Positions 20,344 through 38,029 are shown, counted from the first letter of the stretch. The stretch: DNA of 64,000 nt from Escherichia coli (GCF_003334315.1 NZ_QOWR01000009.1), one strand, 5' to 3'. Made by a program: numbers and translations. Notes: generated by a model from the letters alone, not told the origin.

Positions 20344-20480
20344 TTTTAGCGACATTATTTTGTTAGCCGGAGATGGCGTTCAGACCAGATCCGGCAACAT
20401 TATCCCACGCATGGTCAGCAAACTGACATTATCTCTCCGCCCTGGCAGGCATCAGAAAATCGCTCATACTTTAATCGGTA

Positions 20481-20505
20481 AACAGCACCTTTAGATGCTG
20501 TTTTC
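20481..20505 (+). terminator. Rho-independent terminator downstream of baeR
   Basis: AACAGCA ... TGCTGTT hairpin followed by TTTT. Confidence 0.55.
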
Positions 20506-20533
20506 GATACACAATTTCAATCAAGGAGTCATT

Positions 20534-20866
20534 ATGGCTGGTTGGTTTGAACTCAGTAAGAGCAGTGATAATCAGTTCCGGTTTGTGCTAAAAGCGGGCA
20601 ATGGTGAGACTATCCTCACCAGCGAGCTTTATACCTCAAAAGCCTCTGCGGAAAAGGGCATCGCGTCGGTGCGTAGCAACAGCCCGCAAGAAGAACGCTA
20701 TGAGAAAAAAACGGCAAGTAACGGCAAATTCTATTTCAATCTGAAAGCCGCTAATCATCAAATTATCGGCTCCAGCCAGATGTACGCCACCGCGCAATCT
20801 CGTGAAACCGGAATTGCCTCCGTTAAAGCCAATGGCACAAGCCAGACGGTGAAAGACAATACGTAA
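20534..20866 (+). CDS. yegP: Small conserved protein YegP (110 aa), tandem-duplicated small domain
   Basis: ATG at 20534 preceded by AAGGAG; two internal repeats (KASAEKGIASVRSN / RETGIASVKAN). Confidence 0.85.
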   Translation: MAGWFELSKSSDNQFRFVLKAGNGETILTSELYTSKASAEKGIASVRSNSPQEERYEKKTASNGKFYFNLKAANHQIIGSSQMYATAQSRETGIASVKANGTSQTVKDNT

Positions 20867-21012
20867 TTACGATGCCGGGCGTGGGTTGTTGGCGTCCGGC
20901 GCTTTACCAGATCCCCCCACAGCGCTACAATGCCCGCCCTTAAAGTGGGGGCACTCCCCTAACCGCTTCATCAGGTGAAGCGGATCTGACCTGTCATCAG
21001 AACGAGAGAATT

Positions 21013-22374: not shown

Positions 22375-22458
22375 TTAATTTCGATTATTTTTCCCGGATG
22401 GAAAATTCTTAGAAACCGATCACATACAGCTGCATTTATTAAGGTTATCATCCGTTTC

Positions 22459-22545
22459 GCTGAAAAACATAACCCATAAAATGCTAGCTGTACCAGGAAC
22501 CACCTCCTTAGCCTGTGTAATCTCCCTTACACGGGCTTATTTTTT
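22459..22545 (+). ncRNA. cyaR: CyaR (RyeE) Hfq-dependent sRNA
   Basis: Begins GCTGAAAAACATAACCCATAAAATGCTAGCTGTACCAGGAACCACCTCCTTAGCC and ends in a hairpin plus TTTTTT; matches the CyaR sequence as I recall it. Confidence 0.8.
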
Positions 22546-22703
22546 ATGCATAAGCCCTATCCCTGGTCACCGTCTTCCATTGACCACATCGATAGAATCT
22601 CCCTTCATAGCACGATGCCTTTCACGTAACGGCATCGTGCTCGCACAGGTTCCGGCTAAGCACAACCAGAACGCACATATTTGACGCTTACCAAAAAATA
22701 TTC

Positions 22704-23021
22704 TCACTCTCCACATTTGAATGTCAGACGAGCGACACCATGTAATCCTACACCTTCTGTCTTCAGCTCAACTATTTGCATTTTTTTGCCCTGAGTAACA
22801 CAGAAATGGGCTGCATCATTTTTTACTATATTTTCTGCACCAGATATTCTACCCCTGGCTAAAGAAGCTTCGGCTTCGGTGTAGTATTGGTTATCGAGTT
22901 TACGCTGAATATTACTTTTATATGCAAGGCCAAATTTACCGATACTTGTCTCATCATTATGCACAGCACAACCAGACATAAGAAAAACACTAATTAATGA
23001 TATAGCAGCTATTTTATTCAC
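22704..23021 (-). CDS. yegR: Small lipoprotein-like protein YegR (105 aa from GTG; an upstream ATG at 23036 would add 5 aa)
   Basis: Signal peptide with lipobox-like LMSGC; AT-rich gene. Confidence 0.75.
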   Translation of the reverse strand: MNKIAAISLISVFLMSGCAVHNDETSIGKFGLAYKSNIQRKLDNQYYTEAEASLARGRISGAENIVKNDAAHFCVTQGKKMQIVELKTEGVGLHGVARLTFKCGE

Positions 23022-23434
23022 CTCACCTTCCCCCATTAAATACCAACGACACTCTCTAGTGTTTAAGTATAATAATGGCCGATCATTATAATTGAATAGG
23101 ATTATAATAAATGTTTTGTACAACATTTCCTACATAAGTAGGAATTACAGACTCAGAGGCCCTTCCGGGTAACCCTATGGGAGCTTTAATATATTTGGAA
23201 TAGTATATTGAAGATGCCACTGTTTAGTTGAATATTAGATATTTGCTCTTTTTTCAAATTTACCGGTGGCTACCGTTAACATTCACTGCCCCCATTGCAA
23301 GCTCCTGGTGGTAACAACTGAATTACCCATGCTTGAACTGACTTTTTATCCTCCGACTTTCATCCTGTTCTGACTCCACCTTTTGTTTTCTGCTCTACAC
23401 TATCTACAGACCAATCATAAAGGCACATACGATC

Positions 23435-24334
23435 ATGGCAGAATTTCCCGCCAGCTTACTGATTCTTAATGGCAAAAGTACTGACAATCTACCCTTGCGC
23501 GAAGCAATTATGCTGTTGCGTGAGGAAGGAATGACGATCCATGTGCGGGTCACCTGGGAGAAAGGTGATGCCGCACGATTTGTAGAGGAGGCCCGGAAGT
23601 TGGGCGTCGCAACGGTGATTGCTGGAGGTGGCGATGGCACCATTAATGAAGTTTCTACGGCGTTGATTCAGTGTGAGGGGGATGACATACCCGCGCTGGG
23701 AATTTTACCATTAGGAACCGCCAATGATTTTGCCACCAGCGTAGGGATTCCTGAGGCACTGGATAAGGCGCTGAAACTGGCAATTGCCGGTGACGCCATT
23801 GCGATAGATATGGCGCAGGTCAACAAACAAACCTGTTTTATTAATATGGCGACAGGCGGATTTGGGACGCGTATTACCACAGAAACGCCGGAAAAATTAA
23901 AAGCCGCGCTGGGTAGCGTCTCTTACATCATTCATGGCTTAATGCGTATGGATACTCTGCAACCGGACCGTTGTGAAATCCGCGGTGAAAACTTTCACTG
24001 GCAAGGTGACGCCCTGGTCATTGGTATTGGTAACGGGCGTCAGGCCGGTGGCGGTCAGCAATTGTGTCCGAACGCGTTAATTAACGATGGCTTGCTGCAA
24101 CTGCGCATTTTTACCGGCGATGAAATACTTCCGGCTCTCGTATCAACCTTAAAATCTGACGAAGATAACCCGAATATTATCGAAGGCGCTTCGTCGTGGT
24201 TTGATATTCAGGCACCACACGACATCACCTTTAATCTTGATGGCGAACCGTTGAGTGGGCAAAATTTTCATATTGAAATACTTCCGGCAGCGTTGCGTTG
24301 CCGTCTGCCACCAGATTGCCCGCTTTTACGTTAA
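23435..24334 (+). CDS. yegS: Lipid kinase YegS (299 aa), diacylglycerol-kinase catalytic-domain family
   Basis: DAGK_cat signature (GGDGTINEV). Confidence 0.9.
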
Positions 24335-24343
24335 ATAAAAGCA

Positions 24344-24406
24344 AGCGCAGAAGCAGGATTAGCAGACCGGCATCATCCCTGGGATCTTCTGCGCTCACCC
24401 TTTTTT
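24344..24406 (+). terminator. Long-loop hairpin plus T-tract after yegS, at the left edge of the pentitol island
   Basis: AGCGCAGAAG (24344-24353) pairs with CTTCTGCGCT (24386-24395), then CACCCTTTTTT. Confidence 0.45.
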
Positions 24407-24407
24407 G

Positions 24408-25106
24408 TTACGCAGCTACGGCTAACGCTGCCAGTAATTCATTCATCGATAAATATCTTGCACTCGCCGCATTAAAGCAGGTTTGTTGGGCATCTTCTGA
24501 TACCACAATGGTGTTTATTCCTGCCGCCTGTGCTGCCTGAAAACCACTCACGCTGTCCTCTATAACCAAACAATCTGCAGCAGACAGTTGCAATTCTCGC
24601 AGTGCAGAAAGATAAACTGCCGGATGGGGTTTCCCATGCTTTTCGTCATCAGCACTACAAATCACCGAAAAATAATGCTGAATATTGAGTTTTGTCAGTA
24701 CAGCATCGATCACCTGGTAAGATGAAGAGGTTGCCAGCGCCAGTTGATAGCCACTCCGGCGCAAAAAAAATAACACGTCCTGAACGCCTGGCATCGCTTC
24801 GCCCGTCCCGGCAATCAACGTAGTGATCAGGCGGCGAATCTCACTTTCCAACAGTGCGGGTTCAATGTGTAAATGACAATATTCACACCAGGTTTGGGCA
24901 ATCTCATCCAGCCTTTTACCTTTAGTCAGTCTTATACACTCTTCGTCACTGACACATGCGCCCCACCTTGCCAGTGCTCCCTTTTGTGCCTCACGCCATA
25001 ACCCTTCCGAATCAATGATGACGCCGTCCATATCAAAAATGACTGCTTTACAATTAAACATTGTTCCTCGCAATAAAGCCTGGCACCACACCAGGCTTGT
25101 CGTCAT
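24408..25106 (-). CDS. HAD-superfamily sugar-phosphate phosphatase (beta-phosphoglucomutase-like subfamily), 232 aa from the coupled ATG, or 217 aa if it starts at Met16 (25061)
   Basis: HAD motif I FDMDGVIIDSE, motif II (LATSS), motif III/IV (KPHP ... EDSVSG); its ATG overlaps the stop of the upstream permease (TGATG). Confidence 0.8.
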   Translation of the reverse strand: MTTSLVWCQALLRGTMFNCKAVIFDMDGVIIDSEGLWREAQKGALARWGACVSDEECIRLTKGKRLDEIAQTWCEYCHLHIEPALLESEIRRLITTLIAGTGEAMPGVQDVLFFLRRSGYQLALATSSSYQVIDAVLTKLNIQHYFSVICSADDEKHGKPHPAVYLSALRELQLSAADCLVIEDSVSGFQAAQAAGINTIVVSEDAQQTCFNAASARYLSMNELLAALAVAA

Positions 25107-26383
25107 CAGGAAATGGTGGCGGTCTTCCCTTCACACACTTGCTGATTTGAGAATCCCGGTTGTTCGACGCGAATAAACGGGCAAATAATAAACGCTATCA
25201 CATACAGGGTGGTGTAAGCGATAACCACACCAATAGTACTGAAATAAGGCAGAAGTACCACGGCGATTGCCGGAGCAAGGAAGTTGGACAACCCGGCTGA
25301 AAGGTTATAAACCGAAATAGCTGCTCCTTTATGTTTCGGTTCCAGTGCCGGGAAAACGGCTGCCATCGGTACGAATGCAGCAACAAAGATCCCCAGTGCC
25401 ACCGCAGGTATCAGCGCCATAGCAAAGTTATGACCGAAATGTTGCGGCATGTAGTAGAACGCCAGGCTTGAAAGCGCCATTCCCACGCAACCAAACCAGC
25501 GAACAACTTTCATCCAGCCCATTTTCTCTGCCAGCACGCCCCAGAATACGTTAGAGAAGATGGTGGTAAAGAAGAAGACTGCCCAGACCTGCAACCACTC
25601 AGAGGTGGTAAAGCCCAGCTCATCAACAAACATCATCGGCATAATTACGGCGAATCCGAATAAAGATAAGGTGTTGATAATGCGAACAATACTGGAAAGC
25701 AAAATATTGCGGTTGGTATAAAGCAAAGTCACCGCACGGCCCAGTTCGCTAAACTTCTCTTTTGTGGTTAGGTTTTGCATATGGCGTGGTGTTTCTACTT
25801 TGCGCATAGAAATTAACGCAACAGCGCCACCAACCCCACAGAAGGCCAGCGCCAGCCATAATGTTCCCATTTCGCCAATAAGCGGAATGGTAAAACTGGG
25901 GATGTAGCTGCCGAATACGCCGATACCAATAGAGTAAACTGCCCAGAACCAGCCCAGAGCAGCACTGGTGCTGTCACTGCGTACGTTATGGACAATCGCC
26001 ACAATAAAGGCGTAGAGGAACAGCGGATAGGCTAGGCCACGAATACCATAAAACAGCAGGATTAACCCATAGTTCGCCTGCCCCAGACCAAAGACCAGAA
26101 ACAGCACGTGAAATACGCACCACAGCACAAAGCCGATAAACATGGTTTTTTGTGGCGTAATAATTTCGGCAACTACGCCGGAAACCCAGGCGGAAAGCGC
26201 TGCCGCCAGGCCATAGAGCGTAAAGGCAAAGGAGGCTTCTGCAGGCGTGAAACCCAGTGCTTTAATGTAATGCGACAGGAATGCCAGTTCAAAACCGTCT
26301 CCGGTCATAAAGATGGCAATGGCAATATATCCCCACACCAGATTTAAGGGTAATCCCAGCCATTGTTTATTTGTTAACGACAT
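25106..26383 (-). CDS. dalT: MFS pentitol permease, D-arabinitol transporter type (425 aa)
   Basis: 12-TM MFS; near-identical to the second permease at 34112..35386; sits in the operon with xylulokinase and arabinitol dehydrogenase. Confidence 0.8.
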   Translation of the reverse strand: MSLTNKQWLGLPLNLVWGYIAIAIFMTGDGFELAFLSHYIKALGFTPAEASFAFTLYGLAAALSAWVSGVVAEIITPQKTMFIGFVLWCVFHVLFLVFGLGQANYGLILLFYGIRGLAYPLFLYAFIVAIVHNVRSDSTSAALGWFWAVYSIGIGVFGSYIPSFTIPLIGEMGTLWLALAFCGVGGAVALISMRKVETPRHMQNLTTKEKFSELGRAVTLLYTNRNILLSSIVRIINTLSLFGFAVIMPMMFVDELGFTTSEWLQVWAVFFFTTIFSNVFWGVLAEKMGWMKVVRWFGCVGMALSSLAFYYMPQHFGHNFAMALIPAVALGIFVAAFVPMAAVFPALEPKHKGAAISVYNLSAGLSNFLAPAIAVVLLPYFSTIGVVIAYTTLYVIAFIICPFIRVEQPGFSNQQVCEGKTATIS

Positions 26384-26451
26384 AGTGACCTCGTTTGTAG
26401 GATACAAAACGCCGCTCCGGTGCAAACACCGGAGGGCATTTGTGACAGATG

Positions 26452-27915
26452 TTATTGATTGCGATAGTTCAGGTCGTTGTGATACAGCGCAGTAAACTGC
26501 TGATATCGTTGCATCAGCGCATTATGACGTTCAGGATCGCTGCGCCAGGTTTTGAAGATTTCAGGTTTTTCACACACTGCCGCCAGTGGTTTTCCCGCAG
26601 CAAGACAGGCCAGACGCGCGGCTCCCAGCGCCCCACCCGTTTCACCGCCTTTATGCGTCACCACTGGCATATCGAGAATATCGGCCAGTAACTGCGCCCA
26701 GAATGGACTTCTCGCCCCCCCACCTACCAGCGAGCATTGCTCAATTGCCGTACCGCTTTCTTGCAGGACTCGCAGCCCATCGGCAATACCAAAGCTGACG
26801 CCTTCCAGCACTGCATATCCCATTAGCGCACGCTGACTGGAGTGTGTCAGCGCCCAGAACAATCCCCGGGCATGAGGATCGTTATGTGGCGTACGTTCAC
26901 CAGAAAGATACGGGAGGAACATCGGTGCACTGGCTTTGTCTGCATCAGAAAGTTGGGCAATCTCTTCCAGTAACTCTGTTTCCGTTACCCCCACCAGACG
27001 GCAGAACCATTGCAGACAACTGGCGGCACTGAGCATTACACTCATCTGGTGCCATAAATTCGGTAGTACGTGACAGAAAGCATGGACTGCTGATTGCGGC
27101 GCAGGACGATAGGCATCTGTCACTACAAACAACACCCCGGAAGTTCCCAAAGAAATAAACGCATCTCCGGGAGAAACGGCCCCCACACCAATTGCGCTCA
27201 CGGCGTTATCGCCACCGCCACCAGCAACTACAACCGAAGATGTCAGCCCCCAACGGCTGGCAACTTCAGGGGAAAGAGTGGCAGAAACGTCACAACCTTC
27301 CACCAGTTCCGGCATATTCGCCCGTGTCAGGCCACATTTTTCCAGCAACGAATCTGACCAGTCGCGTTTTTCCACGTCGAGCCACAACGTGCCAGCAGAA
27401 TCCGACATATCGGAAATCTTTTGGCCGGTCATTTTGAAACGCAAATAGTCTTTCGGCAGTAAAACGGTGGAAATGCGCGCAAAGTGCTGCGGCTCATGGC
27501 GCCGTACCCATAGCAATTTGGGGGCGGTAAATCCAGGCATCGCCAGGTTTCCCGCTACCTGATGCAACTCTGGTGCGATCTCTTCCAGCTCCGCACACTC
27601 CTGCGCACTGCGGGTGTCGTTCCATAAAATCGCCGGACGAATCGCCTCTCCTTTTTCATCCAACAGGACGGCACCATGCATTTGACCAGAAAGGCCAATG
27701 GCTTTGATCGCCTGCCAGTGGTGACCGCATTTTTCCCGCAGGGTCGACATTAAATATTCCGTCGCTTCCCACCAGGCTTGCGGCGATTGTTCTGACCAGT
27801 GTGGATGGGGCCGCTGAATGGTCAGCGGCGCACTATGGGTGGCAACAATTTCATTGTTTTCATCAATGACCAGCGCCTTAACTTCCGATGTGCCCAGATC
27901 GATACCCAGATACAT
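26452..27915 (-). CDS. dalK: FGGY-family D-xylulokinase (487 aa)
   Basis: XylB-like N-terminus MYLGIDLGTSEVKA and FGGY C-terminal domain. Confidence 0.85.
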   Translation of the reverse strand: MYLGIDLGTSEVKALVIDENNEIVATHSAPLTIQRPHPHWSEQSPQAWWEATEYLMSTLREKCGHHWQAIKAIGLSGQMHGAVLLDEKGEAIRPAILWNDTRSAQECAELEEIAPELHQVAGNLAMPGFTAPKLLWVRRHEPQHFARISTVLLPKDYLRFKMTGQKISDMSDSAGTLWLDVEKRDWSDSLLEKCGLTRANMPELVEGCDVSATLSPEVASRWGLTSSVVVAGGGGDNAVSAIGVGAVSPGDAFISLGTSGVLFVVTDAYRPAPQSAVHAFCHVLPNLWHQMSVMLSAASCLQWFCRLVGVTETELLEEIAQLSDADKASAPMFLPYLSGERTPHNDPHARGLFWALTHSSQRALMGYAVLEGVSFGIADGLRVLQESGTAIEQCSLVGGGARSPFWAQLLADILDMPVVTHKGGETGGALGAARLACLAAGKPLAAVCEKPEIFKTWRSDPERHNALMQRYQQFTALYHNDLNYRNQ

Positions 27916-27928
27916 AACCGCCTCCTGG

Positions 27929-29296
27929 TTAGTTAATTAACGCGTAGACGTCAGCGATTTTTTCGCGCAACAACGCGGCAAAATCTTCACGTTCGGTTAA
28001 ATCGCCAAACAGCGCTTTATCACTGGCATAAACAGCGACGGGATCGGCAGACTGGAACATTGCATGGACAGCTGGTGCATCAAGGATGCCATCCTGATAT
28101 TCATAGGGCAGTTTGCCGTGATGCCATTGCTCCATGAATACGTAAAACAGTGCAGGTAACATGGCGGTGGCATTCGGGCGAACGCCTCGCTGGTAGCACT
28201 CTCGCAGTGTGGGGGCAATCATCGCCGGAATTTTCGAGAAACCATCCGCAGCGACGCGTTGGTTGGTGTCCTGAATATGTGGATTGGTAAAACGCTTGAG
28301 TACAACATCACGGTAGGTTGGCAAATCGATACCGTTATCGCCCAAGCAAGGAATGACATCTTCCGTCACGTAGCGGTCGGCAATCTGATAGATAAAATCG
28401 GTCATTGTGCTTTCGTGGATATATTTTTGACCGATTAACGTACCTGCCCAGGCGATGCAACTGTGTGAAGAGTTAAGAATGCGAATCTTCGCCTCTTCAT
28501 AGGGGATTACCGACGCCACCAGTTCGACACCGACCTTCTCCAGTGCCGGACGGACATCACGGAAATTATCTTCCACGACCCACTGGATAAAGGTTTCGCC
28601 CATTACCGGCGCTTTATCGGCAATACCCGTTTGAGCCTTGATCCGTGCCGGAAGTTCTGCTGCCGGACGAGGCGTAATGCGGTCAACCATGGTATTCGGG
28701 CAAGTGGTATTTGTACTCAGCCAGTCGATGACATCCTGTTTGCCAGTTAGCTGGAGAAACTCAACCAGGCCATCATGGAAACGTTCACCATTATGGCGCA
28801 CGTTATCGCAATTCAGCAGGGTTAGTGGTCCGGCGTTATTTGCCATACGTGCTTCGAGGATACGGGTAATAACACCGTAAATTGTTTTGCATCCCCCTTT
28901 AAGATCTGCCGCTAAATCAGGATTGTTAACTTCCAGTTTGTGACTGGTATTCAGGTAGTACCCGCCTTCGGTGACGGTGAAAGCAATCACTTTTGTCTTC
29001 GGATCTGCCCCTTCAGCAATCAGCGGTTGTAAATCTGCCTGCCACGGTATCAACTTCTGAATTGAGGTGATCTCTTCATATTCGCTTACCCCTTCCGGGC
29101 TGACGGTTTCCAGCACATAGCGACCTTTCTGTGCACTGAGTGCCTGTACGACATGTTCAGCATCATTACGAATATTGCCCGCAGCAATGCTCCAGCGTTT
29201 ATCGCCCATCACCTGCAAACGGTGTAGATACCACGCCTGATGTGCGCGATGAAAAGAACCTAACCCGATGTGCAGCCATGTAAATTGTTCGTTCAT
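27929..29296 (-). CDS. dalD: D-arabinitol 4-dehydrogenase, mannitol dehydrogenase family (455 aa; ORF-track start 29341 is an extension)
   Basis: Long-chain mannitol-DH family Rossmann N-terminus ([13 protein letters not shown]); GGAG RBS before the ATG at 29296. Confidence 0.85.
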
Positions 29297-29508
29297 TGTT
29301 TCGTTCTCCATTGACGTTATGGCTGAACTGTAATCGAACATTTGAGTTAATTAAGAGCGTTAGATCACAAAAGAACAATTGACCAAAAAAATTACAAATG
29401 ACCAAATCAAAGCAATAAACTTGCCTCGCGGTAAAGCTATGGCCAAAATGACGCTAATCAGTTGCGGGATTTTCACGATTCCGCACGCCACTTTTGAGGT
29501 AGGGAAAC

Positions 29509-30450
29509 GTGAACAAAGAAGATGACATCAGGCTCGATCAAAAAGTACGGGCGGCATGGATGTACTACATTGCCGGACTTAATCAGAGTGAAATCGCAAG
29601 TCAGTTAGGTACTTCACGGCCAGTGGTTCAACGCCTGATAGCAGCAGCGAAAGACGAAGGGATTGTGTCGATTGGATTGCATCATCCGGTTGCCAACTGT
29701 CTCGATTATGCCCAACTGTTAAAGGAAAAGTACCAATTAACCGACTGCAATATTATGCCGGTTTACAGTATTGAAAGTACGCTCGACAGCGTGACATTTG
29801 GCTGTTATCAACTGATGGCGCGTTACTTACAGGGTGACAAACCGACCATCGTTGGTATTGGTTCTGGCTTAACGTTGAAGAAAACCATTAAACGTATCGA
29901 TTTTGATAGTCAGAATACCCGCTGTGTGGCGCTGATTAGCGCCATGAATGAACACGGGCAATGTAACTATTACGACGACGTACCGCTGCTTTTGGCGAGA
30001 AAAATTCAGGGAAAATATTACCAGTGGCCAGCTCCACGCTATGCTCAGTCCCGCGAAGAGTACCAAATGTGGTCAACCAATCGATTGTTCCGCAACGTCT
30101 CTACCGTAGCGCGTGACTCTGATGTTATTTTCGTGGGTATTGGTGCTTTAGGTCGTCAAAGCCCTATTTTCAAAGATGGCTTTATTGATGAGCAGCAACT
30201 GGAAGAGTTAACAGCACGCGGAGGCGTTGGTGAAATCCTCGGACGCTTTATTGATGCTGAAGGCAATGTTGTGGAAAGCCAGATCAACCAGATGATCACC
30301 AGCCATGATATCCGCGAAAGCAACTGCCCACGTATCGCAGCTGCCTGTGGTGAGGATAAACGTCCGGCGATCCTCGCAGCATTAAAAGGTGGGTGGATCA
30401 ACGGTCTGGTCACCGATGAACACACCGCACGCTGGTTGCTGACACGTTAA
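29509..30450 (+). CDS. dalR: SorC/DeoR-type sugar-binding transcriptional regulator (313 aa), probable D-arabinitol operon repressor
   Basis: N-terminal HTH (SEIASQLGTSRPVVQRLIAAAKDEG) plus sugar-binding C-terminal domain; divergent from the arabinitol operon. Confidence 0.75.
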   Translation: MNKEDDIRLDQKVRAAWMYYIAGLNQSEIASQLGTSRPVVQRLIAAAKDEGIVSIGLHHPVANCLDYAQLLKEKYQLTDCNIMPVYSIESTLDSVTFGCYQLMARYLQGDKPTIVGIGSGLTLKKTIKRIDFDSQNTRCVALISAMNEHGQCNYYDDVPLLLARKIQGKYYQWPAPRYAQSREEYQMWSTNRLFRNVSTVARDSDVIFVGIGALGRQSPIFKDGFIDEQQLEELTARGGVGEILGRFIDAEGNVVESQINQMITSHDIRESNCPRIAAACGEDKRPAILAALKGGWINGLVTDEHTARWLLTR

Positions 30451-30452
30451 TC

Positions 30453-31484
30453 TCAGCTGACAACATTCAGGCTCGGAATAAGTTGTGGCGGTATCTCAAT
30501 GCGACGCAGGGTGGTATCGCCAGAATCCACAATTTCAAACACTTTTTCGAGCATGGCGGGTACATCCTGACGAACCATATCGATATCGTGCCCGAGCAGA
30601 GAAACAAAAGGATCCCAGTCAAAACACCCCATTGGCGGTTGATTGGCTCCCGTCTGCCCGGTTTGCGCCAGCCAGCGAACCACCCCTTCAAGAGAGATTG
30701 TCGAGTTGACGAATAACCCGTGAAGCGATACTGCAGAGCTTTGGAAGACCTCTTTCAGTAATCCCTCTACGCGAGCAGAAGAGTAGCCGGTAACCAGTTT
30801 ATGTTCATCCGGTACGGTTATCCCCAAAGCCTGATGGGCATCGACAAAACCACATAAACGTTCAGCAGTATTGTTATCGCTTATACGTCCACCGACAAAA
30901 GTCAAAGGTGCCAGCTTGCCATAGCGTTTCTGGCTGTTGGCTAAAATTCTTTCCGTCAATAATTTCGCCCCCATATAGTTATCAGAAATGATCGACGGCG
31001 CCAGTGTTCCCGGCAGATCCAGATTCAGTGTCGGTACGCCCGCTTGCTGGCACATTTGGGCTATTTTATCCGGTTGAGTCGCTCCGGTAGCAATGACCCA
31101 ATCCACCTGCCAGGAGAGCATGGCGCGAGCAGCCTCAATTTCCAGTTCTGGCTGTCGCCGCGTACAGGTGATGATTGGCAGTAATCCTCTGGCACGCGCC
31201 ATCTCTTCAAATTTTTCGGCAATCGATCCAAAGTATCGGTTGTCATATTTCGGCACAATCATGCCAATAACGTTGGATTTTTTACTGCGCAGTAAACTTG
31301 CCTGCCGATTAATGGCATATCCCTGCTCTTCCGCAATACGGGTGACCTTCTCAGCCAGCTTTGCGCTGATGCGTCGCTTTTTCCAGTTGCCATTCAAAAT
31401 AGCGCTTACCGCACTGGCAGAAACGCCGGTTAATTCTGCCAGGTCGTAAATGGTCGTTTTCTTCGTTTTCTCAACGCGTGTCAC
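30453..31484 (-). CDS. rbtR: LacI-family transcriptional regulator (343 aa), probable ribitol operon repressor
   Basis: LacI-type HTH (TIYDLAELTGVSASAVSAILNG) and periplasmic-binding-protein-like effector domain; divergent from the ribitol operon and convergent with the other regulator. Confidence 0.75.
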   Translation of the reverse strand: MTRVEKTKKTTIYDLAELTGVSASAVSAILNGNWKKRRISAKLAEKVTRIAEEQGYAINRQASLLRSKKSNVIGMIVPKYDNRYFGSIAEKFEEMARARGLLPIITCTRRQPELEIEAARAMLSWQVDWVIATGATQPDKIAQMCQQAGVPTLNLDLPGTLAPSIISDNYMGAKLLTERILANSQKRYGKLAPLTFVGGRISDNNTAERLCGFVDAHQALGITVPDEHKLVTGYSSARVEGLLKEVFQSSAVSLHGLFVNSTISLEGVVRWLAQTGQTGANQPPMGCFDWDPFVSLLGHDIDMVRQDVPAMLEKVFEIVDSGDTTLRRIEIPPQLIPSLNVVS

Positions 31485-31541
31485 AAATTTGCCTCTTCAT
31501 TTTGAATGTCTCTTGCTGAGAATTTAAGCAAGTGCTAGATC

Positions 31542-31559
31542 TGCTTCATCGATTGAGCA
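31542..31559. promoter_or_regulatory. Candidate LacI-type operator in the ribitol regulator/operon intergenic region
   Basis: TGCTTCATCGATTGAGCA: 14 of 18 positions self-complementary around a central ATCGAT. Confidence 0.35.
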
Positions 31560-31642
31560 GTTTGCTTCACACGGCAGCTAAATTCCCGTTCAGTGCGTGC
31601 AAGCAAACAGAGACTATAAATTCGCCCTGGTAAAAGGATTAT

Positions 31643-32395
31643 ATGATGAATCACTCTGTGCCCTCTATGAATACTCCCCTTAATGGCAAAGTTGCAGCTA
31701 TCACTGGCGCTGCGTCAGGTATTGGCCTGCAATGTGCAAAAACGCTGCTCGATGCAGGAGCAAAGGTAGTATTGATTGACCGGGAAGGCGACAAACTGCA
31801 CAAGATTGTCGCTGAGTTAGGCGAAAACGCGTACGCGCTGCAACTCGATCTCTTCAATAATCAGCAAGTCGATAACATGCTGGCGGACATTATCGAACTG
31901 GCGGGTGGGCTGGATATTTTTCATGCCAATGCAGGCGCTTATATTGGCGGCCCAGTGACTGAAGGTGATCCAGATGTCTGGGATCGTGTGTTAAATCTGA
32001 ATATAAATGCGGCGTTTCGCTGTGTCCGTGCAGTCCTGCCGCATATGATTGCGCAGAGGTCGGGCGATATAATTTTTACCAGTTCCATCGCGGGCGTCGT
32101 TCCGGTTATCTGGGAACCGATCTACACCGCGTCCAAATTTGCCGTTCAGGCATTCGTACACACTACCCGCCGCCAGGTTTCTCAATATGGCGTGCGTGTG
32201 GGTGCGGTGCTGCCAGGACCAGTAGTCACTGCCCTGCTTGATGACTGGCCAAAAGCCAAAATGGAAGAAGCCCTGGCAAATGGTAGCCTGATGCAACCGA
32301 TTGAAGTGGCGGAATCAGTATTGTTTATGGTGACCCGCTCGAAAAATGTCACCGTGCGAGATTTAGTGATCCTGCCTGGCAGTGTCGATCTGTAA
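31643..32395 (+). CDS. rbtD: Ribitol 2-dehydrogenase, short-chain dehydrogenase/reductase family (250 aa)
   Basis: SDR cofactor motif [13 protein letters not shown] and catalytic YTASK; matches Klebsiella ribitol dehydrogenase as I recall it. Confidence 0.88.
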
Positions 32396-32405
32396 GGGCG
32401 CAATC

Positions 32406-34010
32406 ATGACAATAACCAAAACCGTTATTGGTGTTGATGTGGGATCAGGCAGTGTCCGCGCCGGGATTTTTGATCTCAACGGATCTCTGCTATCCCATGC
32501 CACAGAAAAAATCACGACTACGCGGCGCAGCGGAAGCCGCGTGGAACAGTCCAGCCAGGAGATCTGGCAGGCGGTCTGTTCATGTATTCGTAATGCGCTC
32601 ACTCTGGCAGACGTTTGTGCACAAAGTGTGGCAGGCATCGGTTTTGATGCCACCTGTTCTCTGGTGGTACTGGATAAAAACGGTGATCCATTGCCTGTCA
32701 GCCCGGAAGGAGATGCAAAGCAAAATATCATTGTGTGGATGGATCACCGCGCCACCGAACAAGCAGAGCGAATCAATGCCACTCACCATCCGGTGCTGAA
32801 CTACGTCGGTGGTAAAATTTCGCCTGAAATGGAAACACCGAAAATTCTCTGGCTGAAAGAAAATATGCCAGAGATCTACGAACGTGCCGGACAATTTTTC
32901 GATCTGGCCGATTTTCTGACCTGGCGGGCTACCGGTGATTTAGCGCGTTCAGTATGCACTGTTACCTGTAAATGGACGTGGCTGGCACATGAAAATCGCT
33001 GGGATCCAGATTATTTCCGCACCATTGGCCTTGCAGAGTTAGCGGATGAAGATTTTATTCGCATTGGTCATCATATTGTTTCTCCCGGAACACCTTGTGG
33101 AAATGGTTTAACAGCACAAGCCGCGGCAGAGATGGGATTACTCCCCGGCACACCTGTCGCTGTAGGGTTAATTGATGCTCACGCTGGTGGCATCGGTACG
33201 GTTGGCGTAGAAGGTGGAGCGCTGAACAATCTCGCGTATGTTTTCGGCACTTCTTCATGCACCATGGCATCTACCACTTCTCCCTCGTTTGTACCGGGTG
33301 TCTGGGGGCCGTATTACAGTGCGATGGTTCCAGGTCTGTGGTTAGTTGAAGGCGGGCAAAGTGCTGCGGGAGCAGCTATTGACCAGCTACTTGATTTCCA
33401 TCCGGCTGTTGAAGAAGCTCGCGAAATGGCACAACGTGTGAATCAGCCCCTCCCCGTCTGGCTTGCTGATCGAATCCTCGAAAAAACGGCGCAACCATCA
33501 GATGCTGTCGCCCTGGCGAAAGGGCTACACGTGGTGCCGGAATTTCTCGGAAATCGCGCCCCCTTCGCAGATCCTCATGCCAGAGCGGTAATTTGTGGCC
33601 TGGGTATGGAGCGAGATCTGGATAATTTACTCGCCTTGTATATCGCTGGATTATGCGGAATTGGTTATGGTCTGCGCCAAATTCTCGACGCTCAAACAGC
33701 GCAGGGAGTAGTGAGTAAAAATATCGTTATTAGCGGCGGTGCCGGGCAGCATCCACTGGTACGACAAATTCTGGCAGATACCTGCGGTATTCCGGTCATT
33801 ACCACGCAATGCTGCGAACCGGTTTTATTAGGCTCGGCCATTCTTGGTGCTGTCGCCGGAAATATTGCACCTTCTGTTGGCGAAGCGATGCAACAATTCA
33901 CCCATGTGGATAAATATTATTATCCGCAAGAACGCTATCAATCTCTTCATCATCGTCGATATGAGGCCTATAAGCAGTTGCAGCATACTGCAAAATTACT
34001 CAGAGACTAA
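32406..34010 (+). CDS. rbtK: FGGY-family D-ribulokinase (534 aa; ORF-track start 32382 overlaps rbtD)
   Basis: FGGY N-terminus (VIGVDVGSGSVRAGIFD) and C-terminal domain. Confidence 0.85.
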   Translation: MTITKTVIGVDVGSGSVRAGIFDLNGSLLSHATEKITTTRRSGSRVEQSSQEIWQAVCSCIRNALTLADVCAQSVAGIGFDATCSLVVLDKNGDPLPVSPEGDAKQNIIVWMDHRATEQAERINATHHPVLNYVGGKISPEMETPKILWLKENMPEIYERAGQFFDLADFLTWRATGDLARSVCTVTCKWTWLAHENRWDPDYFRTIGLAELADEDFIRIGHHIVSPGTPCGNGLTAQAAAEMGLLPGTPVAVGLIDAHAGGIGTVGVEGGALNNLAYVFGTSSCTMASTTSPSFVPGVWGPYYSAMVPGLWLVEGGQSAAGAAIDQLLDFHPAVEEAREMAQRVNQPLPVWLADRILEKTAQPSDAVALAKGLHVVPEFLGNRAPFADPHARAVICGLGMERDLDNLLALYIAGLCGIGYGLRQILDAQTAQGVVSKNIVISGGAGQHPLVRQILADTCGIPVITTQCCEPVLLGSAILGAVAGNIAPSVGEAMQQFTHVDKYYYPQERYQSLHHRRYEAYKQLQHTAKLLRD

Positions 34011-34111
34011 TTAACCAGCCGCCTGACGCTGTTTTCAGGCAATCACTAATAACGACTCACTCCGGTAATATCCCGGAGTGCATTCATCTGCACCCTAAAA
34101 ACGAGGTTTAT

Positions 34112-35386
34112 ATGTCCAGAAATAATAAACAGTGGTTGGGTTTGCCACTGCATCTGATATGGGGATATATCGCCATCGCAGTATTTATGACTGGTGATGG
34201 TTTCGAACTCGCATTCTTATCGCACTATATTAAATCGTTAGGCTTCACACCTGCGGAAGCCTCTTTTGCCTTTACGCTCTACGGCCTGGCGGCTGCCCTT
34301 TCCGCCTGGGTTTCTGGGGTAGTAGCGGAAATCATCACGCCGCAAAAAACCATGCTGATTGGTTTTGTCCTATGGTGCGTATTCCATGTTCTGTTTCTGG
34401 TCTTTGGATTAGGACAGGCAAACTATGGGTTAATCCTGCTGTTTTACGGGATTCGTGGTTTAGCGTATCCGCTATTTCTCTACTCATTTATCGTCGTTAT
34501 TATTCATAACGTGCGTAGCGAAAATTCCAGTTCTGCTCTGGGTTGGTACTGGGCGGTATATTCAGTAGGGATCGGTGTTGCTGGCAGTTATATTCCCAGT
34601 TTTACGATACCGATTATGGGTGAAATGGGAACCTTATGGCTGGCACTGGCGTTCTGCTTTGCTGGCGGTGTCATTGCCATGATCTCCTTGCGTCATGTTA
34701 AAACGCCTGGACATATGCATAATTTAACTCCCCGTGAGAAGTTTGCAGAATTAAGTCGGGCAGTAACTTTACTTTATACCAACCGCAATATTTTTCTCTC
34801 CAGTATTGTGCGCATTATAAATACCTTATCGTTATTCGGTTTTGCGGTCATTATGCCAATGATGTTTGTGGATGAACTGGGATTCACCACCTCTGAATGG
34901 TTGCAGGTCTGGGCGGCATTTTTCTTTACCACTATTTTCTCTAATATTTTTTGGGGGATTGTGGCAGAAAAAATGGGCTGGATGCGTGTTATTCGCTGGT
35001 TTGGTTGCCTCGGGATGGCAGCATCAAGTTTAGCGTTTTACTACATGCCGCAATACTTTGGTCACAACTACTGGATGGCAATGATTCCGGCGATTGCTCT
35101 GGGAACTTTTGTTGCTGCATTTGTGCCGATGGCCGCTGTCTTCCCGGCACTGGAACCAAAACACAAAGGTGCTGCAATCTCGGTTTACAACCTCTCTGCG
35201 GGTATGTCTAACTTCCTGGCTCCGGCAATTGCCGTGGTGTTATTACCGTGGTTTAGCACTATCGGTGTGGTCATTGCCTATACAGCATTGTATCTATTGG
35301 CCTTTGTCCTTTGCGCATTCATTCGCGTTGAGCAGCCAGGATTCAGTTCTGCGCCAGTGACTGAGAAGGCATTGAATATCTCCTGA
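34112..35386 (+). CDS. rbtT: MFS pentitol permease, ribitol transporter type (424 aa)
   Basis: Near-identical paralog of the permease at 25106..26383 (N-termini NKQWLGLPL.L.WGYIAIA.FMTGDGFELAFLSHYIK.LGFTPAEASFAFTLYGLAAALSAWVSGVVAEIITPQKTM). Confidence 0.8.
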   Translation: MSRNNKQWLGLPLHLIWGYIAIAVFMTGDGFELAFLSHYIKSLGFTPAEASFAFTLYGLAAALSAWVSGVVAEIITPQKTMLIGFVLWCVFHVLFLVFGLGQANYGLILLFYGIRGLAYPLFLYSFIVVIIHNVRSENSSSALGWYWAVYSVGIGVAGSYIPSFTIPIMGEMGTLWLALAFCFAGGVIAMISLRHVKTPGHMHNLTPREKFAELSRAVTLLYTNRNIFLSSIVRIINTLSLFGFAVIMPMMFVDELGFTTSEWLQVWAAFFFTTIFSNIFWGIVAEKMGWMRVIRWFGCLGMAASSLAFYYMPQYFGHNYWMAMIPAIALGTFVAAFVPMAAVFPALEPKHKGAAISVYNLSAGMSNFLAPAIAVVLLPWFSTIGVVIAYTALYLLAFVLCAFIRVEQPGFSSAPVTEKALNIS

Positions 35387-35408
35387 AAAACGAAACGCAT
35401 CAGGCACT

Positions 35409-35434
35409 CATCCTCTCCCTCATGGGAGAGGATG
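35409..35434. terminator. Hairpin (11-bp stem) between convergent rbtT and fbaB, at the right edge of the island
   Basis: CATCCTCTCCC-tcat-GGGAGAGGATG. Confidence 0.5.
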
Positions 35435-35442
35435 ATTTCACA

Positions 35443-36495
35443 TCAGGCAATAGTGACTTTGTTATCGAGATAAACGTCCTGCACGGCGTTAATCAGTTTC
35501 ACGCCGTCAGCCATCGATTTCTTAAATGCTTTCCGCCCCAGAATCAGCCCCATTCCGCCTGCGCGTTTGTTGATAACCGCAGTACGCACTGCATCGCTGA
35601 GGTCAGTTTCACCGCCCGCAGCACCGCCGGAGTTTATCAACCCAGCCCGACCCATATAGCAGTTAGCTAACTGATAACGCACCAGATCAATCGGGTTTTC
35701 GCTGGTCAATTTGCTGTAAACACGATCGTCGGTGTAACCGTAATTAATTGCTTTATAGCCGCCGTTATTTTCCGCCATTTTTTGTTTGACGATATCTGCA
35801 CCGATGGTTGCCGCCAGATGGTTTGCCTGACCGGTCAGGTCGGCGGAAACATGGTAATCAACGCCATCTTTCTTAAAGGCGGAGTTACGCAAATAGGCCC
35901 ACAGCACTGTCACCATACCCAGCTCGTGCGCACGTTCAAAAGCCGCAGAAATTTCTTCAATCTGGCGACGTGACTCTTCCGAGCCAAAATAGATAGTCGC
36001 ACCAACCGCAACCGCGCCCATGTTGAACGCCTGCTCCACGCTGGCATACAGCGTTTGATCGTAGGTATTCGGGTAACTTAGCGTCTCGTTGTGATTAAGT
36101 TTGACGAGGAATGGAATGCGATGCGCATAACGCCGCGATACCGACGCCAGCACGCCGTAAGTTGACGCCACACAGTTACAGCCCGCTTCGATCGCCAGTT
36201 CAACAATGTTTTTCGGGTCAAAGTAGAGCGGGTTAGCAGCAAATGAAGCTCCGGCAGAGTGCTCAACGCCCTGGTCAACCGGCAGAATAGAAAGATATCC
36301 TGTGCCAGCCAGACGCCCGGTGTTGTACAACGTCTGCATATTACGTAACACCGCTGGCGGGCGATTATTGTCAATCATTACGCGGTCTACGTAGTCATGT
36401 CCGGGGAGATAAAGCTGGTCAGAAGGAATTGTCATACAACGGTGCTGTAAAAGGTTGTCGGCGTCTTTGCCAAGCAACTGCGCAATATCTGTCAT
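35443..36495 (-). CDS. fbaB: Class I fructose-bisphosphate aldolase (350 aa; ORF-track start 36567 is an extension)
   Basis: DeoC/FbaB-type class I aldolase; start [16 protein letters not shown]. Confidence 0.9.
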
Positions 36496-36751
36496 TACTA
36501 TGCTCCCGTAAATTCCGATTGGATATCGGCTATGGATTGTCCTGGCCCGCCTTTTGCGGGCAATCATAATCCTGGTCGTTACGGGCGAGTTTTTCCATCT
36601 TTTGGATGTTTTTTCAGCGTTTTCTGTTGGCTCGATTCATCAGAAAAAATGTTAGCGCGGTCAAGTTTTCACCGCAAAGGTATTTAAAAGGTATTATTAA
36701 GTGGTATTGTCATCGCGTACCTTACATTACCTGTCATGAAGGAATTAAAAG

Positions 36752-38029
36752 ATGAAAACAACAGCAAAGCTGTCGTTCATGATGTTTGTTGAATGGTTTA
36801 TCTGGGGCGCGTGGTTTGTGCCATTGTGGTTGTGGTTAAGTAAAAGCGGTTTTAGTGCCGGAGAAATTGGCTGGTCGTATGCCTGTACCGCCATTGCGGC
36901 GATCCTGTCGCCAATTCTGGTTGGCTCCATCACTGACCGCTTTTTCTCGGCGCAAAAAGTGCTGGCGGTATTGATGTTCGCAGGCGCGCTGCTGATGTAT
37001 TTCGCTGCGCAACAGACCACTTTTGCCGGGTTCTTTCCGTTACTGCTGGCTTACTCTCTAACCTATATGCCGACCATTGCGCTGACTAACAGCATCGCTT
37101 TTGCCAACGTGCCGGATGTGGAGCGTGATTTCCCGCGCATTCGTGTGATGGGCACTATCGGCTGGATTGTCTCCGGTCTGGCATGTGGTTTCTTGCCGCA
37201 AATACTGGGGTATGCCGATATCTCACCGACTAACATCCCGCTGCTGATTACCGCCGGAAGTTCTGCTCTGCTCGGTGTGTTTGCGTTTTTCCTGCCCGAC
37301 ACGCCACCAAAAAGCACCGGCAAAATGGATATTAAAGTCATGCTCGGCCTGGATGCGCTGATCCTGCTGCGCGATAAAAACTTCCTCGTCTTTTTCTTCT
37401 GTTCATTCCTGTTTGCGATGCCACTGGCGTTCTATTACATCTTTGCCAACGGTTATCTGACCGAAGTCGGCATGAAAAATGCCACCGGCTGGATGACGCT
37501 CGGCCAGTTCTCTGAAATATTCTTTATGCTGGCATTACCGTTTTTCACTAAACGCTTTGGTATCAAAAAGGTATTATTGCTTGGTCTGGTCACCGCTGCG
37601 ATCCGCTATGGCTTCTTTATTTACGGTAGTGCGGATGAATATTTCACCTACGCGTTACTGTTCCTCGGTATTTTGCTTCACGGCGTAAGTTACGATTTTT
37701 ACTACGTTACCGCTTACATCTATGTCGATAAAAAAGCCCCCGTGCATATGCGTACCGCCGCGCAGGGGCTGATCACGCTCTGCTGCCAGGGCTTCGGCAG
37801 TTTGCTCGGCTATCGTCTTGGCGGTGTGATGATGGAAAAGATGTTCGCTTATCAGGAACCGGTAAACGGACTGACTTTCAACTGGTCCGGGATGTGGACT
37901 TTTGGCGCGGTGATGATTGCCATTATCGCCGTGCTGTTCATGATTTTTTTCCGCGAATCCGACAACGAAATTACGGCTATCAAGGTCGATGATCGCGATA
38001 TTGCGTTGACACAAGGGGAAGTTAAATGA
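36752..38029 (+). CDS. yegT: Nucleoside:H+ symporter-family MFS transporter (425 aa)
   Basis: 12-TM MFS with NHS-family character; 4-nt overlap with yegU. Confidence 0.85.
   Translation: MKTTAKLSFMMFVEWFIWGAWFVPLWLWLSKSGFSAGEIGWSYACTAIAAILSPILVGSITDRFFSAQKVLAVLMFAGALLMYFAAQQTTFAGFFPLLLAYSLTYMPTIALTNSIAFANVPDVERDFPRIRVMGTIGWIVSGLACGFLPQILGYADISPTNIPLLITAGSSALLGVFAFFLPDTPPKSTGKMDIKVMLGLDALILLRDKNFLVFFFCSFLFAMPLAFYYIFANGYLTEVGMKNATGWMTLGQFSEIFFMLALPFFTKRFGIKKVLLLGLVTAAIRYGFFIYGSADEYFTYALLFLGILLHGVSYDFYYVTAYIYVDKKAPVHMRTAAQGLITLCCQGFGSLLGYRLGGVMMEKMFAYQEPVNGLTFNWSGMWTFGAVMIAIIAVLFMIFFRESDNEITAIKVDDRDIALTQGEVK

Follow-up and report, generated by a model that had tools for sequence, protein, structure and literature searches.

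A ribitol and D-arabinitol catabolism cassette takes the place of gat between yegS and fbaB in Escherichia coli

Results

Gene content of the yegS-fbaB interval

The window analysed here is a stretch of 64,000 nucleotides of Escherichia coli (NZ_QOWR01000009.1), and all positions are counted from its first letter. The segment at 24335-35442 lies between yegS, which encodes a lipid kinase (23435-24334, plus strand; annotation and NCBIfam NF009602, 488.7 bits vs a cut-off of 284), and fbaB, which encodes a class I fructose-bisphosphate aldolase (35443-36495, minus strand; RefSeq annotation). It contains nine genes and one hairpin at either edge, and is the already known rtl-atl (rbt/dal) cassette for pentitol catabolism. 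In other E. coli strains, the interval is occupied by gatR-gatD-gatCBA-gatZY. In comparison with a gat-bearing strain, homology ends at the yegS stop codon and restarts at the fbaB stop codon, so the position at the gat site proposed in an earlier sequence-only reading is exact.

Within the cassette, the only ORFs of at least 80 aa are the nine genes and frames overlapping them, and none encodes an integrase or transposase. A tRNA search of the segment finds none, and no direct repeats are found at the cassette edges. These searches bear out the earlier claim that integrase, IS, tRNA, and junction direct repeats are absent. Composition, which had been suggested as a check, gives no sign of a foreign origin: the GC content is 49.5% vs 50.8%, and the RSCU correlation is 0.62 vs a baseline of 0.79 ± 0.10. 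RefSeq names are generic for six of the nine cassette genes.

The dal operon and its regulator

The dal operon is on the minus strand. Its first gene, dalD (27929-29296), encodes a D-arabinitol 4-dehydrogenase of the mannitol dehydrogenase family (equivalog model NF043014, 755.7 bits vs 600). Directly downstream and abutting it, dalK (26452-27915, annotated as xylB) encodes a D-xylulokinase (annotation and TIGR01312, 636.3 bits vs 380), followed by dalT (25106-26383), which encodes a D-arabinitol MFS permease (RbtT/DalT/CsbX model TIGR00897, 513.9 bits vs 375). The last gene (24408-25061) encodes a predicted sugar-phosphate phosphatase of the HAD superfamily (HxpB-like), matching Pfam HAD_2 at 1.5e-34 and NCBIfam HxpB with 171.6 bits, which is under the cut-off of 191. 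A HAD gene follows dalT in Enterobacteriaceae and Vibrio.

Divergent from dalD, dalR (29509-30450, plus strand) encodes a SorC-family regulator with an N-terminal HTH and a sugar-binding domain (PF04198, 2.8e-51), 82% identical in amino acid sequence to the product of the K. pneumoniae gene at the equivalent position. DalR is a putative repressor of the dal operon. In a multi-species alignment of the dalD/dalR control region (29297-29508), the block at 29354-29404 is conserved in 10 enterobacterial taxa, both E. coli island types described below included. A weak CRP-like half-site is located at 29354-29369.

The rbt operon and its regulator

The second regulator gene, rbtR (30453-31484, minus strand), is convergent with dalR, and the two stop codons are 2 nt apart. 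It encodes a LacI-family regulator according to annotation and NCBIfam LacI-family matches, all of which are below equivalog cut-offs. The control region at 31485-31645 separates rbtR from the divergent rbtD and contains a near-palindrome, GCTTCATCGATTGAGC (31543-31558), which is a candidate RbtR operator. In the multi-species alignment, 14 of its 16 positions are identical in all 10 enterobacterial taxa, and the Cedecea sequence alone deviates, at two positions. A CRP scan of both control regions gives weak matches only, each with three mismatches, and a consensus scan of the same regions finds no sigma-70-like promoter, with counts at or below the shuffle expectation, which makes that scan uninformative.

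The rbt operon is on the plus strand. The product of rbtD (31646-32395) is a ribitol 2-dehydrogenase of the SDR family, which matches PDB 9x6o/9x6l over its full length (484 bits) and is 87% identical in amino acid sequence to that of the K. pneumoniae gene; among NCBIfam equivalogs, none matches RbtD at its cut-off. The product of rbtK (32406-34010) is an FGGY pentulose kinase, presumably D-ribulokinase (TIGR01315, 919.7 bits vs 408.7); as TIGR01315 is a subfamily model, specificity for D-ribulose is only predicted. The last gene, rbtT (34112-35386), encodes a ribitol MFS permease (TIGR00897, 514.7 bits vs 375). The ORFs and family models thus agree with both operons and both regulator classes of the sequence-only reading: a minus-strand operon for a dehydrogenase, a xylulokinase, a permease, and a HAD phosphatase with a plus-strand SorC-type gene, and a minus-strand LacI-type gene with a plus-strand operon for an SDR, a ribulokinase, and a permease.

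Edge hairpins and the permease inverted repeat

Hairpins had been noticed at both edges (24344-24406 and 35409-35434), and folding confirms them. The left hairpin, with T-runs on either side, has a minus-strand folding energy of -29.6 kcal/mol (z -3.6), which none of 200 shuffled sequences reaches, and probably terminates transcription in both directions, that of yegS and that of the dal operon. The type-2 island retains this hairpin and gat-only strains lack it, so it is part of the cassette. The right hairpin (35408-35435), located between the converging rbtT and fbaB, folds at -24.3 kcal/mol (z -5.6) into a perfect stem of 12 bp and lacks a canonical T-tract. Neither edge hairpin is picked up by a simple terminator scan.

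A feature absent from the earlier description is an inverted repeat of 1,256 nt with 78% identity, whose arms at 25151-26406 (dalT) and 34089-35344 (rbtT) sit just inside the cassette edges. Imperfect inverted repeats, about 1.3-1.4 kb long, likewise surround the rtl-atl genes of E. coli C. Link and Reiner (Nature, 1982) reportedly described these repeats, and the idea of a composite transposon-like mobile element is said to have been raised. The position of the repeat close to both edges, the patchy occurrence of the cassette among E. coli strains, and the homogenisation of the arms within the genome in Raoultella (about 95%), which shows that the arms interact, would all fit a cassette that is, or once was, such an element inserted at the gat site. 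However, the arms are two permease genes, both predicted to be functional and both over the TIGR00897 cut-off, and are only 77-78% identical in the window. Beyond the left arm, toward the cassette edge, come the HAD gene and the hairpin, so that this arm is not at the end. Searches for an ORF encoding a transposase or integrase, for a target-site duplication, and for a tRNA find none. In addition, the cluster of many genera, though in the same slot, includes a single permease gene and hence forms no repeat, and all type-1 copies inspected are at one site, with ends that blend into the coding sequences of yegS and fbaB. A transposon origin is therefore very improbable, and we reject the inverted repeats as transposon ends on account of the permease-gene arms, the lack of a transposase, and the single site.

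The cassette is the rtl-atl locus of E. coli C

The rtl-atl gene set has long been known to give E. coli C, and about 6% of E. coli strains, growth on ribitol and D-arabitol, reportedly with induction of each pathway by its own substrate; the locus was reportedly worked out by Reiner (1975) and by Link and Reiner (1982, 1983). Comparison of the segment with the complete E. coli C chromosome (NZ_CP020543.1) reveals 7 mismatches in 11,108 nt and no gaps, indicating that the window contains the classical rtl-atl locus and that the mapping of rtl/atl to the gat position given in the sequence-only reading is right. The flanks and the orientation are the same, and the inverted repeats and the exclusion of gat are reproduced. 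The RefSeq accessions are identical for seven of the nine proteins and differ for XylB and RbtR. The host strain also differs; the window is 100% identical to strain WP7-S17-ESBL-04. Passages of PMC6805351 and PMC2806823 cite Link and Reiner (1983) for a 'genotypic exclusion' of rtl-atl with gat.

Two cassette versions among E. coli genomes

The presence of dalD and gatD was counted in 5,426 complete E. coli genomes. In what follows, type 1 denotes copies with at least 99% identity to the window cassette, and type 2 denotes a version about 82% identical to it. The dalD gene is present in 330 genomes, in 303 at 99% identity or more and in 27 at about 82.7%. The gatD gene is present in 5,104, and the union of the two is 5,406; therefore about 28 genomes carry both, corresponding to the 27 type-2 genomes and at most one other. 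About 5,076 genomes (about 93.5%) carry gat alone, 5.6% carry the type-1 cassette alone, 0.5% carry type 2 fused to gat, and 20 of the 5,426 carry neither gat nor a dal/rbt cassette. The earlier expectation that close relatives would not carry both gat and the pentitol genes thus holds for the window cassette, because type 1 meets any gatD sequence in at most 1 of 303 genomes, but fails for type 2, where 27 genomes, including O55:H7, have both. All type-1 copies inspected occupy one and the same site.

Part of the report on E. coli O55:H7 CB9615 (Zhou et al. 2010, PMC2806823) describes a ribitol/arabinitol cluster adjoining gat. This type-2 arrangement shares with the window the slot, the left junction at the yegS stop codon, the left hairpin, and the gene order from the HAD gene to rbtK. 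It differs in being fused to gatR...gatY, in lacking rbtT, and in nucleotide sequence (82.3% identity, with flanks that are 96-99% identical). As rbtT is missing, type 2 has no inverted repeat. All five type-2 carriers examined lack rbtT, and three of them have a broken ribitol branch, the result of two independent lesions. The proposal that the type-2 pentitol module is always dead is rejected, since in the other two the absence of rbtT is the only defect.

The slot in other genera

The same cluster order is found between yegS and fbaB in Raoultella (two loci), Superficieibacter (three loci), Enterobacter sp. 10-1, and C. koseri, and in K. indica the dal half alone occupies the slot. None of these loci contains gat. 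The tree of the island genes has the shape of the species tree, and islands diverge in step with their flanks. The cluster fills the interval in several genera, indicating that the slot is old and is not the target of a mobile element. The word 'island' used in the sequence-only reading suggests an insertion; it is more fitting to regard the segment as one among several cassettes that can occupy a long-established slot.

To look for a donor, we searched 100,044 species-representative genomes, one genome per species. Nothing closer than C. koseri is found, whose DalD is the closest outside E. coli (94% amino acid and 80.6% nucleotide identity), and no other Escherichia species is among the loci returned. 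Because the search covered one genome per species, a donor that carries the cluster as an accessory could exist.

The dal/rbt operons of Klebsiella pneumoniae were described by Heuel et al. (1997, 1998), as cited in passages of PMC6685057 and PMC11226699. In K. pneumoniae ATCC 13883, the order is rbtT-rbtK-rbtD-rbtR/dalR-dalD-dalK-dalT-HAD, as in the window and as the sequence-only reading had stated: nine genes in mirror image, with convergent dalR and rbtR in the center. Control-region footprints are conserved between the two, and fbaB is on the rbt side in Klebsiella, with no yegS within the sequence covered on the dal side. The identical layout, including the HAD gene, and the amino acid identity of 73-88% might suggest that E. 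coli recently acquired the cassette directly from Klebsiella. However, over six genes, K. pneumoniae and K. oxytoca share only about 73% nucleotide identity with the window cassette, less than do Leclercia (75-76%) and C. koseri (80.6%). Moreover, the GC content of 49.5% is typical of E. coli, in contrast to about 57% in Klebsiella (K. variicola, from part of PMC4511632). Klebsiella is rejected as a donor on nucleotide identity, and a direct transfer from it is the least credible of the origins considered.

Probable recombination scars at the cassette edges

A mismatch map and a cross-genus alignment reveal non-E. coli-like substitutions in the last ~30 nt of yegS (24301-24328), which travel with the cassette, and in the last ~120 nt of fbaB (35455-35560), which are common to the type-1 carriers compared. 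Both patches depart from the alleles resident in E. coli and have character states in common with other genera. The replaced segment extends a little beyond the edges given earlier (24335 and 35442), since donor-like substitutions reach into yegS and fbaB.

We compared four type-1 and five type-2 carriers base by base. Between the four independent type-1 carriers, there are 4-8 SNPs in the 11.1 kb of the island (about 0.04-0.07%), whereas the flanks next to it have 10-46 SNPs per kb and belong to different haplotypes. Type 2 has a diversity of 0.9-3.6%, which is the ordinary within-species level. A nearly clonal cassette in diverse flanks, together with the patches in yegS and fbaB, suggests that the cassette entered and spread through homologous recombination.

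An ancestral E. coli allele, inherited vertically and lost in most lineages when gat took the slot, would account for several observations. The slot and the gene order are common to other genera, the two E. coli types are sisters in an island-gene tree that follows the species tree, and GC content and codon usage are E. coli-like. Such an allele should have diversity at the E. coli level, as type 2 does, but type 1 does not; a recent selective sweep, acting on an old E. coli allele, could also explain the low type-1 diversity. In addition, types 1 and 2 differ by 17.7%, close to the divergence between E. coli and C. koseri in the flanks (13-23%). Types 1 and 2 cannot both represent the vertical E. 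coli lineage. The patches shared by type-1 carriers also argue against vertical descent, which we consider improbable, though less so than a transposon or a Klebsiella source.

Discussion

The segment is very probably the E. coli C rtl-atl cassette, two outward-pointing pentitol operons imported by recombination into an old slot. The functional steps proposed below rest on family membership and on what is known biochemically from Klebsiella and E. coli C. The substrate assignments are said to go back to Reiner (1975), Scangos and Reiner (1978), Link and Reiner (1982/83), and Heuel (1997/98). DalT would import D-arabinitol, DalD would oxidise it to D-xylulose, and DalK would convert the latter to xylulose 5-phosphate. 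Likewise, RbtT would import ribitol, RbtD would oxidise it to D-ribulose, and RbtK would form ribulose 5-phosphate. Both phosphates would enter the pentose-phosphate pathway. With the repressor genes converging in the center, DalR and RbtR would each repress their own operon from the divergent promoter region, RbtR possibly through the candidate operator at 31543-31558. We infer that the HAD phosphatase may serve as a safety valve that removes dead-end phosphates of sugars or pentitols.

As for the origin, the yegS-fbaB interval appears to be a slot of long standing, occupied by dal/rbt in several enterobacterial genera, and in E. coli it would hold gat alone, the window cassette alone, or an older resident dal/rbt cluster fused to gat. 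The window version would derive from a relative that is diverged and unsampled; it would have entered through homologous recombination within yegS and fbaB, displacing the prior occupant, and would later have moved among E. coli lineages in the same way. Because the cassette would enter through homologous recombination in the flanks, gat would be excluded without any mobile-element machinery.

More tentatively, and rather doubtfully, the interval could be a long-lived 'cassette polymorphism' whose alternatives are kept apart by selection beyond geometry. In that case, type 2 would be E. coli's own old dal/rbt copy, eroding wherever gat is present, and the complete type 1 would come from an unsampled sister lineage and persist only where gat has been displaced, a pattern that would reflect metabolic antagonism between the catabolism of galactitol and that of ribitol. 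The fast-evolving HAD phosphatase at the end of dal operons, from those of Vibrio to those of E. coli, would then be a detoxifier of mis-phosphorylated polyols.

The alternation of rtl-atl with gat became a textbook example, in the 1970s-80s, of how accessory catabolic genes and another operon can alternate at one map position. Its confirmation adds nothing fundamental, and the findings will not surprise a specialist. What is added are genome-scale exclusion counts for type 1, type 2, gat-only, and empty genomes, two cluster versions 18% apart within E. coli in a slot common to several genera, a common version that is nearly clonal with recombination scars in yegS and fbaB, and a HAD phosphatase conserved as part of the dal operon. 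The use of the locus lies in better annotation and in a clean example of cassette replacement through flanking homology.

Gene layout and identity of the cassette

The ORF map of 21000-39000, with minus-strand gene starts as in RefSeq, places nine genes between yegS (23435-24334, +; NCBIfam YegS, 489 bits versus a cut-off of 284) and fbaB (35443-36495, -; from the ORF map). The minus-strand dal operon consists of dalD (27929-29296; NCBIfam DalD, 755.7 bits versus 600), the xylulokinase gene dalK (26452-27915; 636 versus 380), the RbtT/DalT/CsbX permease gene dalT (25106-26383; 514 versus 375), and, as its last gene, a HAD_2 hydrolase gene (24408-25061), whose best NCBIfam match, HxpB, is under the cut-off. 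Two regulator genes follow, dalR (29509-30450, +), whose product has a SorC-type sugar-binding domain (PF04198), and rbtR (30453-31484, -; from the ORF map). The plus-strand rbt genes are rbtD (31646-32395; an SDR with a full-length match of 484 bits to solved ribitol 2-dehydrogenases), the FGGY pentulose kinase gene rbtK (32406-34010; NCBIfam 920 versus 409), and the RbtT/DalT/CsbX permease gene rbtT (34112-35386; 515 versus 375). The mirror-image nine-gene layout described from the sequence is therefore borne out.

In the complete E. coli C genome (NZ_CP020543.1), all nine genes likewise lie between fbaB and yegS, and the cassette differs from that of the window at 7 of 11,108 positions, with no gaps. 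Therefore, the window carries the classical rtl-atl locus, and the alignment upholds the statement in the sequence-only reading that rtl/atl of E. coli C lies at the gat position. Over 13.2 kb, comprising the cassette and both flanks, identity to E. coli WP7-S17-ESBL-04 is 100%. The yegS-fbaB interval of a gat-bearing strain is occupied by gatR, gatD, gatC, gatB, gatA, gatZ, and gatY, in accordance with the proposal that the island sits in the place of gat; homology between the gat and pentitol haplotypes ends at the yegS stop codon and restarts at the fbaB stop codon. Both the observation and its interpretation are correct, and the feature is a well-documented, already known locus.

The hairpins noted at the two edges are real by folding: the energies are -29.6 kcal/mol for the left one (z -3.6) and -24.3 kcal/mol for the right one (z -5.6), whose 12-bp stem is perfect. 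As had also been stated, the junctions lack signs of mobility, with no tRNA, no direct repeats at the cassette edges, and no transposase. The sole Rfam match in 20000-40000 is the small RNA CyaR/RyeE, 5' of yegR in the yegQ-yegR gap (22457-22542, +; RF00112, 100.7 bits versus a gathering score of 47). Small hairpins also lie in the dalT/HAD spacer (25072-25099, AAGCCTGG...CCAGGCTT) and in the rbtK/rbtT spacer (34058-34080, 8-bp stem); these may be internal attenuators or processing sites setting permease or phosphatase levels. In gat-only strains, REP-like palindromes (GCCGGATGCGGTGTAAACACCTTATCCGGC and similar) are present at both gat-cassette intergenic junctions (comparison locus L002, 2436-2516 and 8766-9074), and the pentitol cassette junctions are without them.

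Two E. coli versions of the cluster

Among 5,426 complete E. coli genomes, dalD is present in 330 (303 at at least 99% identity and 27 at ~82.7%) and gatD in 5,104, while a chimeric dalD+gatD query matches 5,406 genomes (5,437 places in 5,407 records). These counts leave ~28 genomes with both genes, namely the 27 carriers of divergent dalD and at most one other. Both genes are absent from 20 of the 5,426. Two gatD matches are on plasmid records, and in strain a7 (NZ_CP122496.1) gatD is reduced to a 47-nt remnant.

The 27 genomes carry a second version, type 2. The sequence-only reading had counted relatives with both gat and these genes against itself; such genomes exist in these 27, but the window's version, type 1, still excludes gat. 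In all five of the 27 carriers opened (L003, 12414-22134; L004; L068; L069; L070), the order is yegS-HAD-dalT-dalK-dalD-dalR-rbtR-rbtD-rbtK, directly joined to gatR...gatY-fbaB, without rbtT. In three of these carriers, two different lesions disrupt the ribitol branch: one carrier has an internal stop in rbtD, and two have a common rbtR-rbtD deletion and a frameshifted rbtK, one of them with a frameshifted dalD as well. The remaining two are intact save for the missing rbtT. In line with this arrangement, the ribitol/arabinitol cluster of O55:H7 CB9615 adjoins gat (PMC2806823). Both that paper and PMC6805351 credit 'genotypic exclusion' to Link and Reiner 1983.

The left junction is common to both types: identity is 96-98% within yegS and drops to 70-85% right after its stop codon. 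Over six genes the mean is 82.3%, compared with 96-99% in the flanks. The two E. coli versions are thus deeply diverged, and of them only type 1 excludes gat.

The same slot in other genera

A DalD scan of 100,044 species, one genome per species, returned 58 loci, onto which the window proteins were mapped. The yegS-fbaB slot holds a mirror-image cluster with rbtT in Raoultella ornithinolytica and another Raoultella, one without rbtT in three Superficieibacter genomes and Enterobacter sp. 10-1, a mirror-image cluster in Citrobacter koseri, and the dal half only in Klebsiella indica. None of these non-E. coli loci has gat in the slot, and the gat cluster is what sets the E. coli slot apart. The claim that Klebsiella has the same layout also holds, as the gene order of K. 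pneumoniae ATCC 13883 matches, HAD gene included, with amino acid identities of 85% (DalD), 84% (DalK), 86% (DalT), 82% (DalR), 76% (RbtR), 87% (RbtD), and 73% (RbtK).

A neighbour-joining tree built from the concatenated island genes follows the species tree, with the two E. coli types as sisters and then, in order, C. koseri (80.5% to each), Leclercia, and Klebsiella/Raoultella. In addition, the island diverges from each outgroup about as much as the flanks do. Together with the clusters in the same slot, this indicates that the slot is old and that the cluster largely stayed put.

In loci ranging from E. coli to Vibrio, dalT is followed by the HAD gene (L005-L032, L041, L056). Its product is 81% identical between types 1 and 2, compared with ~93% for the other dal genes, indicating that it evolves much faster; identity to C. 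koseri is only 45%.

Farther afield, dalD-dalK-permease trios occur in Neisseria, Alysiella, Uruburuella, and Bergeriella (DalD 66-71%; L033-L040, L042, L045, L057), and complete dalR-dalD-dalK-dalT-HAD sets in Vibrio and Aliivibrio (L027, L029, L030, L041, L056). The assemblies labelled 'Chryseobacterium sp. 18061' (L022; enterobacterial-type dal/rbt cluster, DalD 84%) and 'uncultured Lacinutrix sp.' (L031; Vibrio-type cluster, DalD 72%) are probably mislabelled or contaminated.

An inverted repeat formed by the permease genes

The two permease genes form the arms of a 1,256-nt inverted repeat of 78% identity (25151-26406 and 34089-35344), absent from the sequence-only reading. We equate it with the imperfect inverted repeats around the E. 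coli C genes that Link and Reiner (1982) reportedly described. Such arms could suggest a composite transposon bounded by inverted repeats, but they are functional permease genes, the left arm is non-terminal, and both a transposase and a target duplication are absent, which argues against that reading.

In the window's cassette dalT and rbtT are 77% identical, whereas inside each of two Raoultella species (L014, L044) they are ~95% identical, and the paralogs group by genome rather than by position. In some lineages, therefore, the arms either evolve in concert, with gene conversion homogenising them, or are re-duplicated, with dalT as the source of a new rbtT. Across the 58 loci, rbtT is missing from many genera.

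Conserved elements in the control regions

Both divergent control regions were aligned over ten taxa. In the rbtR-rbtD gap, the near-palindrome GCTTCATCGATTGAGC (31543-31558) is the same at 14 of 16 positions in all ten rows, and the remaining two vary in the Cedecea row alone. Its form makes it a candidate LacI-family operator. In the dalD-dalR gap, a conserved block (29354-29404) contains a weak CRP-like half-site. Both are putative regulatory elements.

Probable entry and spread of the type-1 cassette

Between the window and each of four independent type-1 carriers (CFSAN064035, TUM1880, ECCNB12-2, and E. coli C), the 11.1-kb island has 4-8 differing positions, and the kilobases just outside it have 10-46 each. 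Two type-2 carriers compared have an island divergence of 0.9-3.6%, which is ordinary E. coli diversity. The type-1 carriers have in common two patches, at the ends of yegS (24301-24328) and fbaB (35455-35560), which are unlike the resident allele of gat-only and type-2 E. coli strains and carry the character states of C. koseri and other genera.

The near-clonal island and the foreign patches point to entry and spread via homologous recombination. A segment from a diverged relative would have entered E. coli by recombination inside yegS and fbaB, and later transfer among E. coli backgrounds would have used breakpoints near the island. Those of CFSAN064035 and TUM1880 map to 23740-24301 on the left and 35560-35617 on the right.

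The comparison of GC and codon usage suggested earlier does not flag the cassette as foreign: GC is 49.5% versus 50.8%, and codon usage has r 0.62 versus a flank-versus-flank baseline of 0.79 +/- 0.10. The unremarkable composition fits a donor of similar composition. The 100,044-species scan, with one genome each, yielded no donor: no locus in it is closer than that of C. koseri, and no other Escherichia species is among the 58 loci returned. Composition argues against Klebsiella as donor, and nucleotide identity to it is only ~73%.

Upstream of the island, the yegR region (22500-23500) has ~40% GC, and no other stretch varies as much between strains (up to 46 SNPs/kb). Phage tail genes adjoin yegR in strain XJ6-3 (L069, 1-1613), and in O55:H7 DEC5D the yegP-yegQ gap holds a toxin-antitoxin pair, ParD (frameshifted)/ParE (L003, 8402-8997).

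For this known locus, the points to keep are the inverted repeat missed earlier, the two diverged E. coli versions, the conservation of the slot across genera, the recombination scars in yegS and fbaB, and the conserved, little-studied HAD phosphatase.
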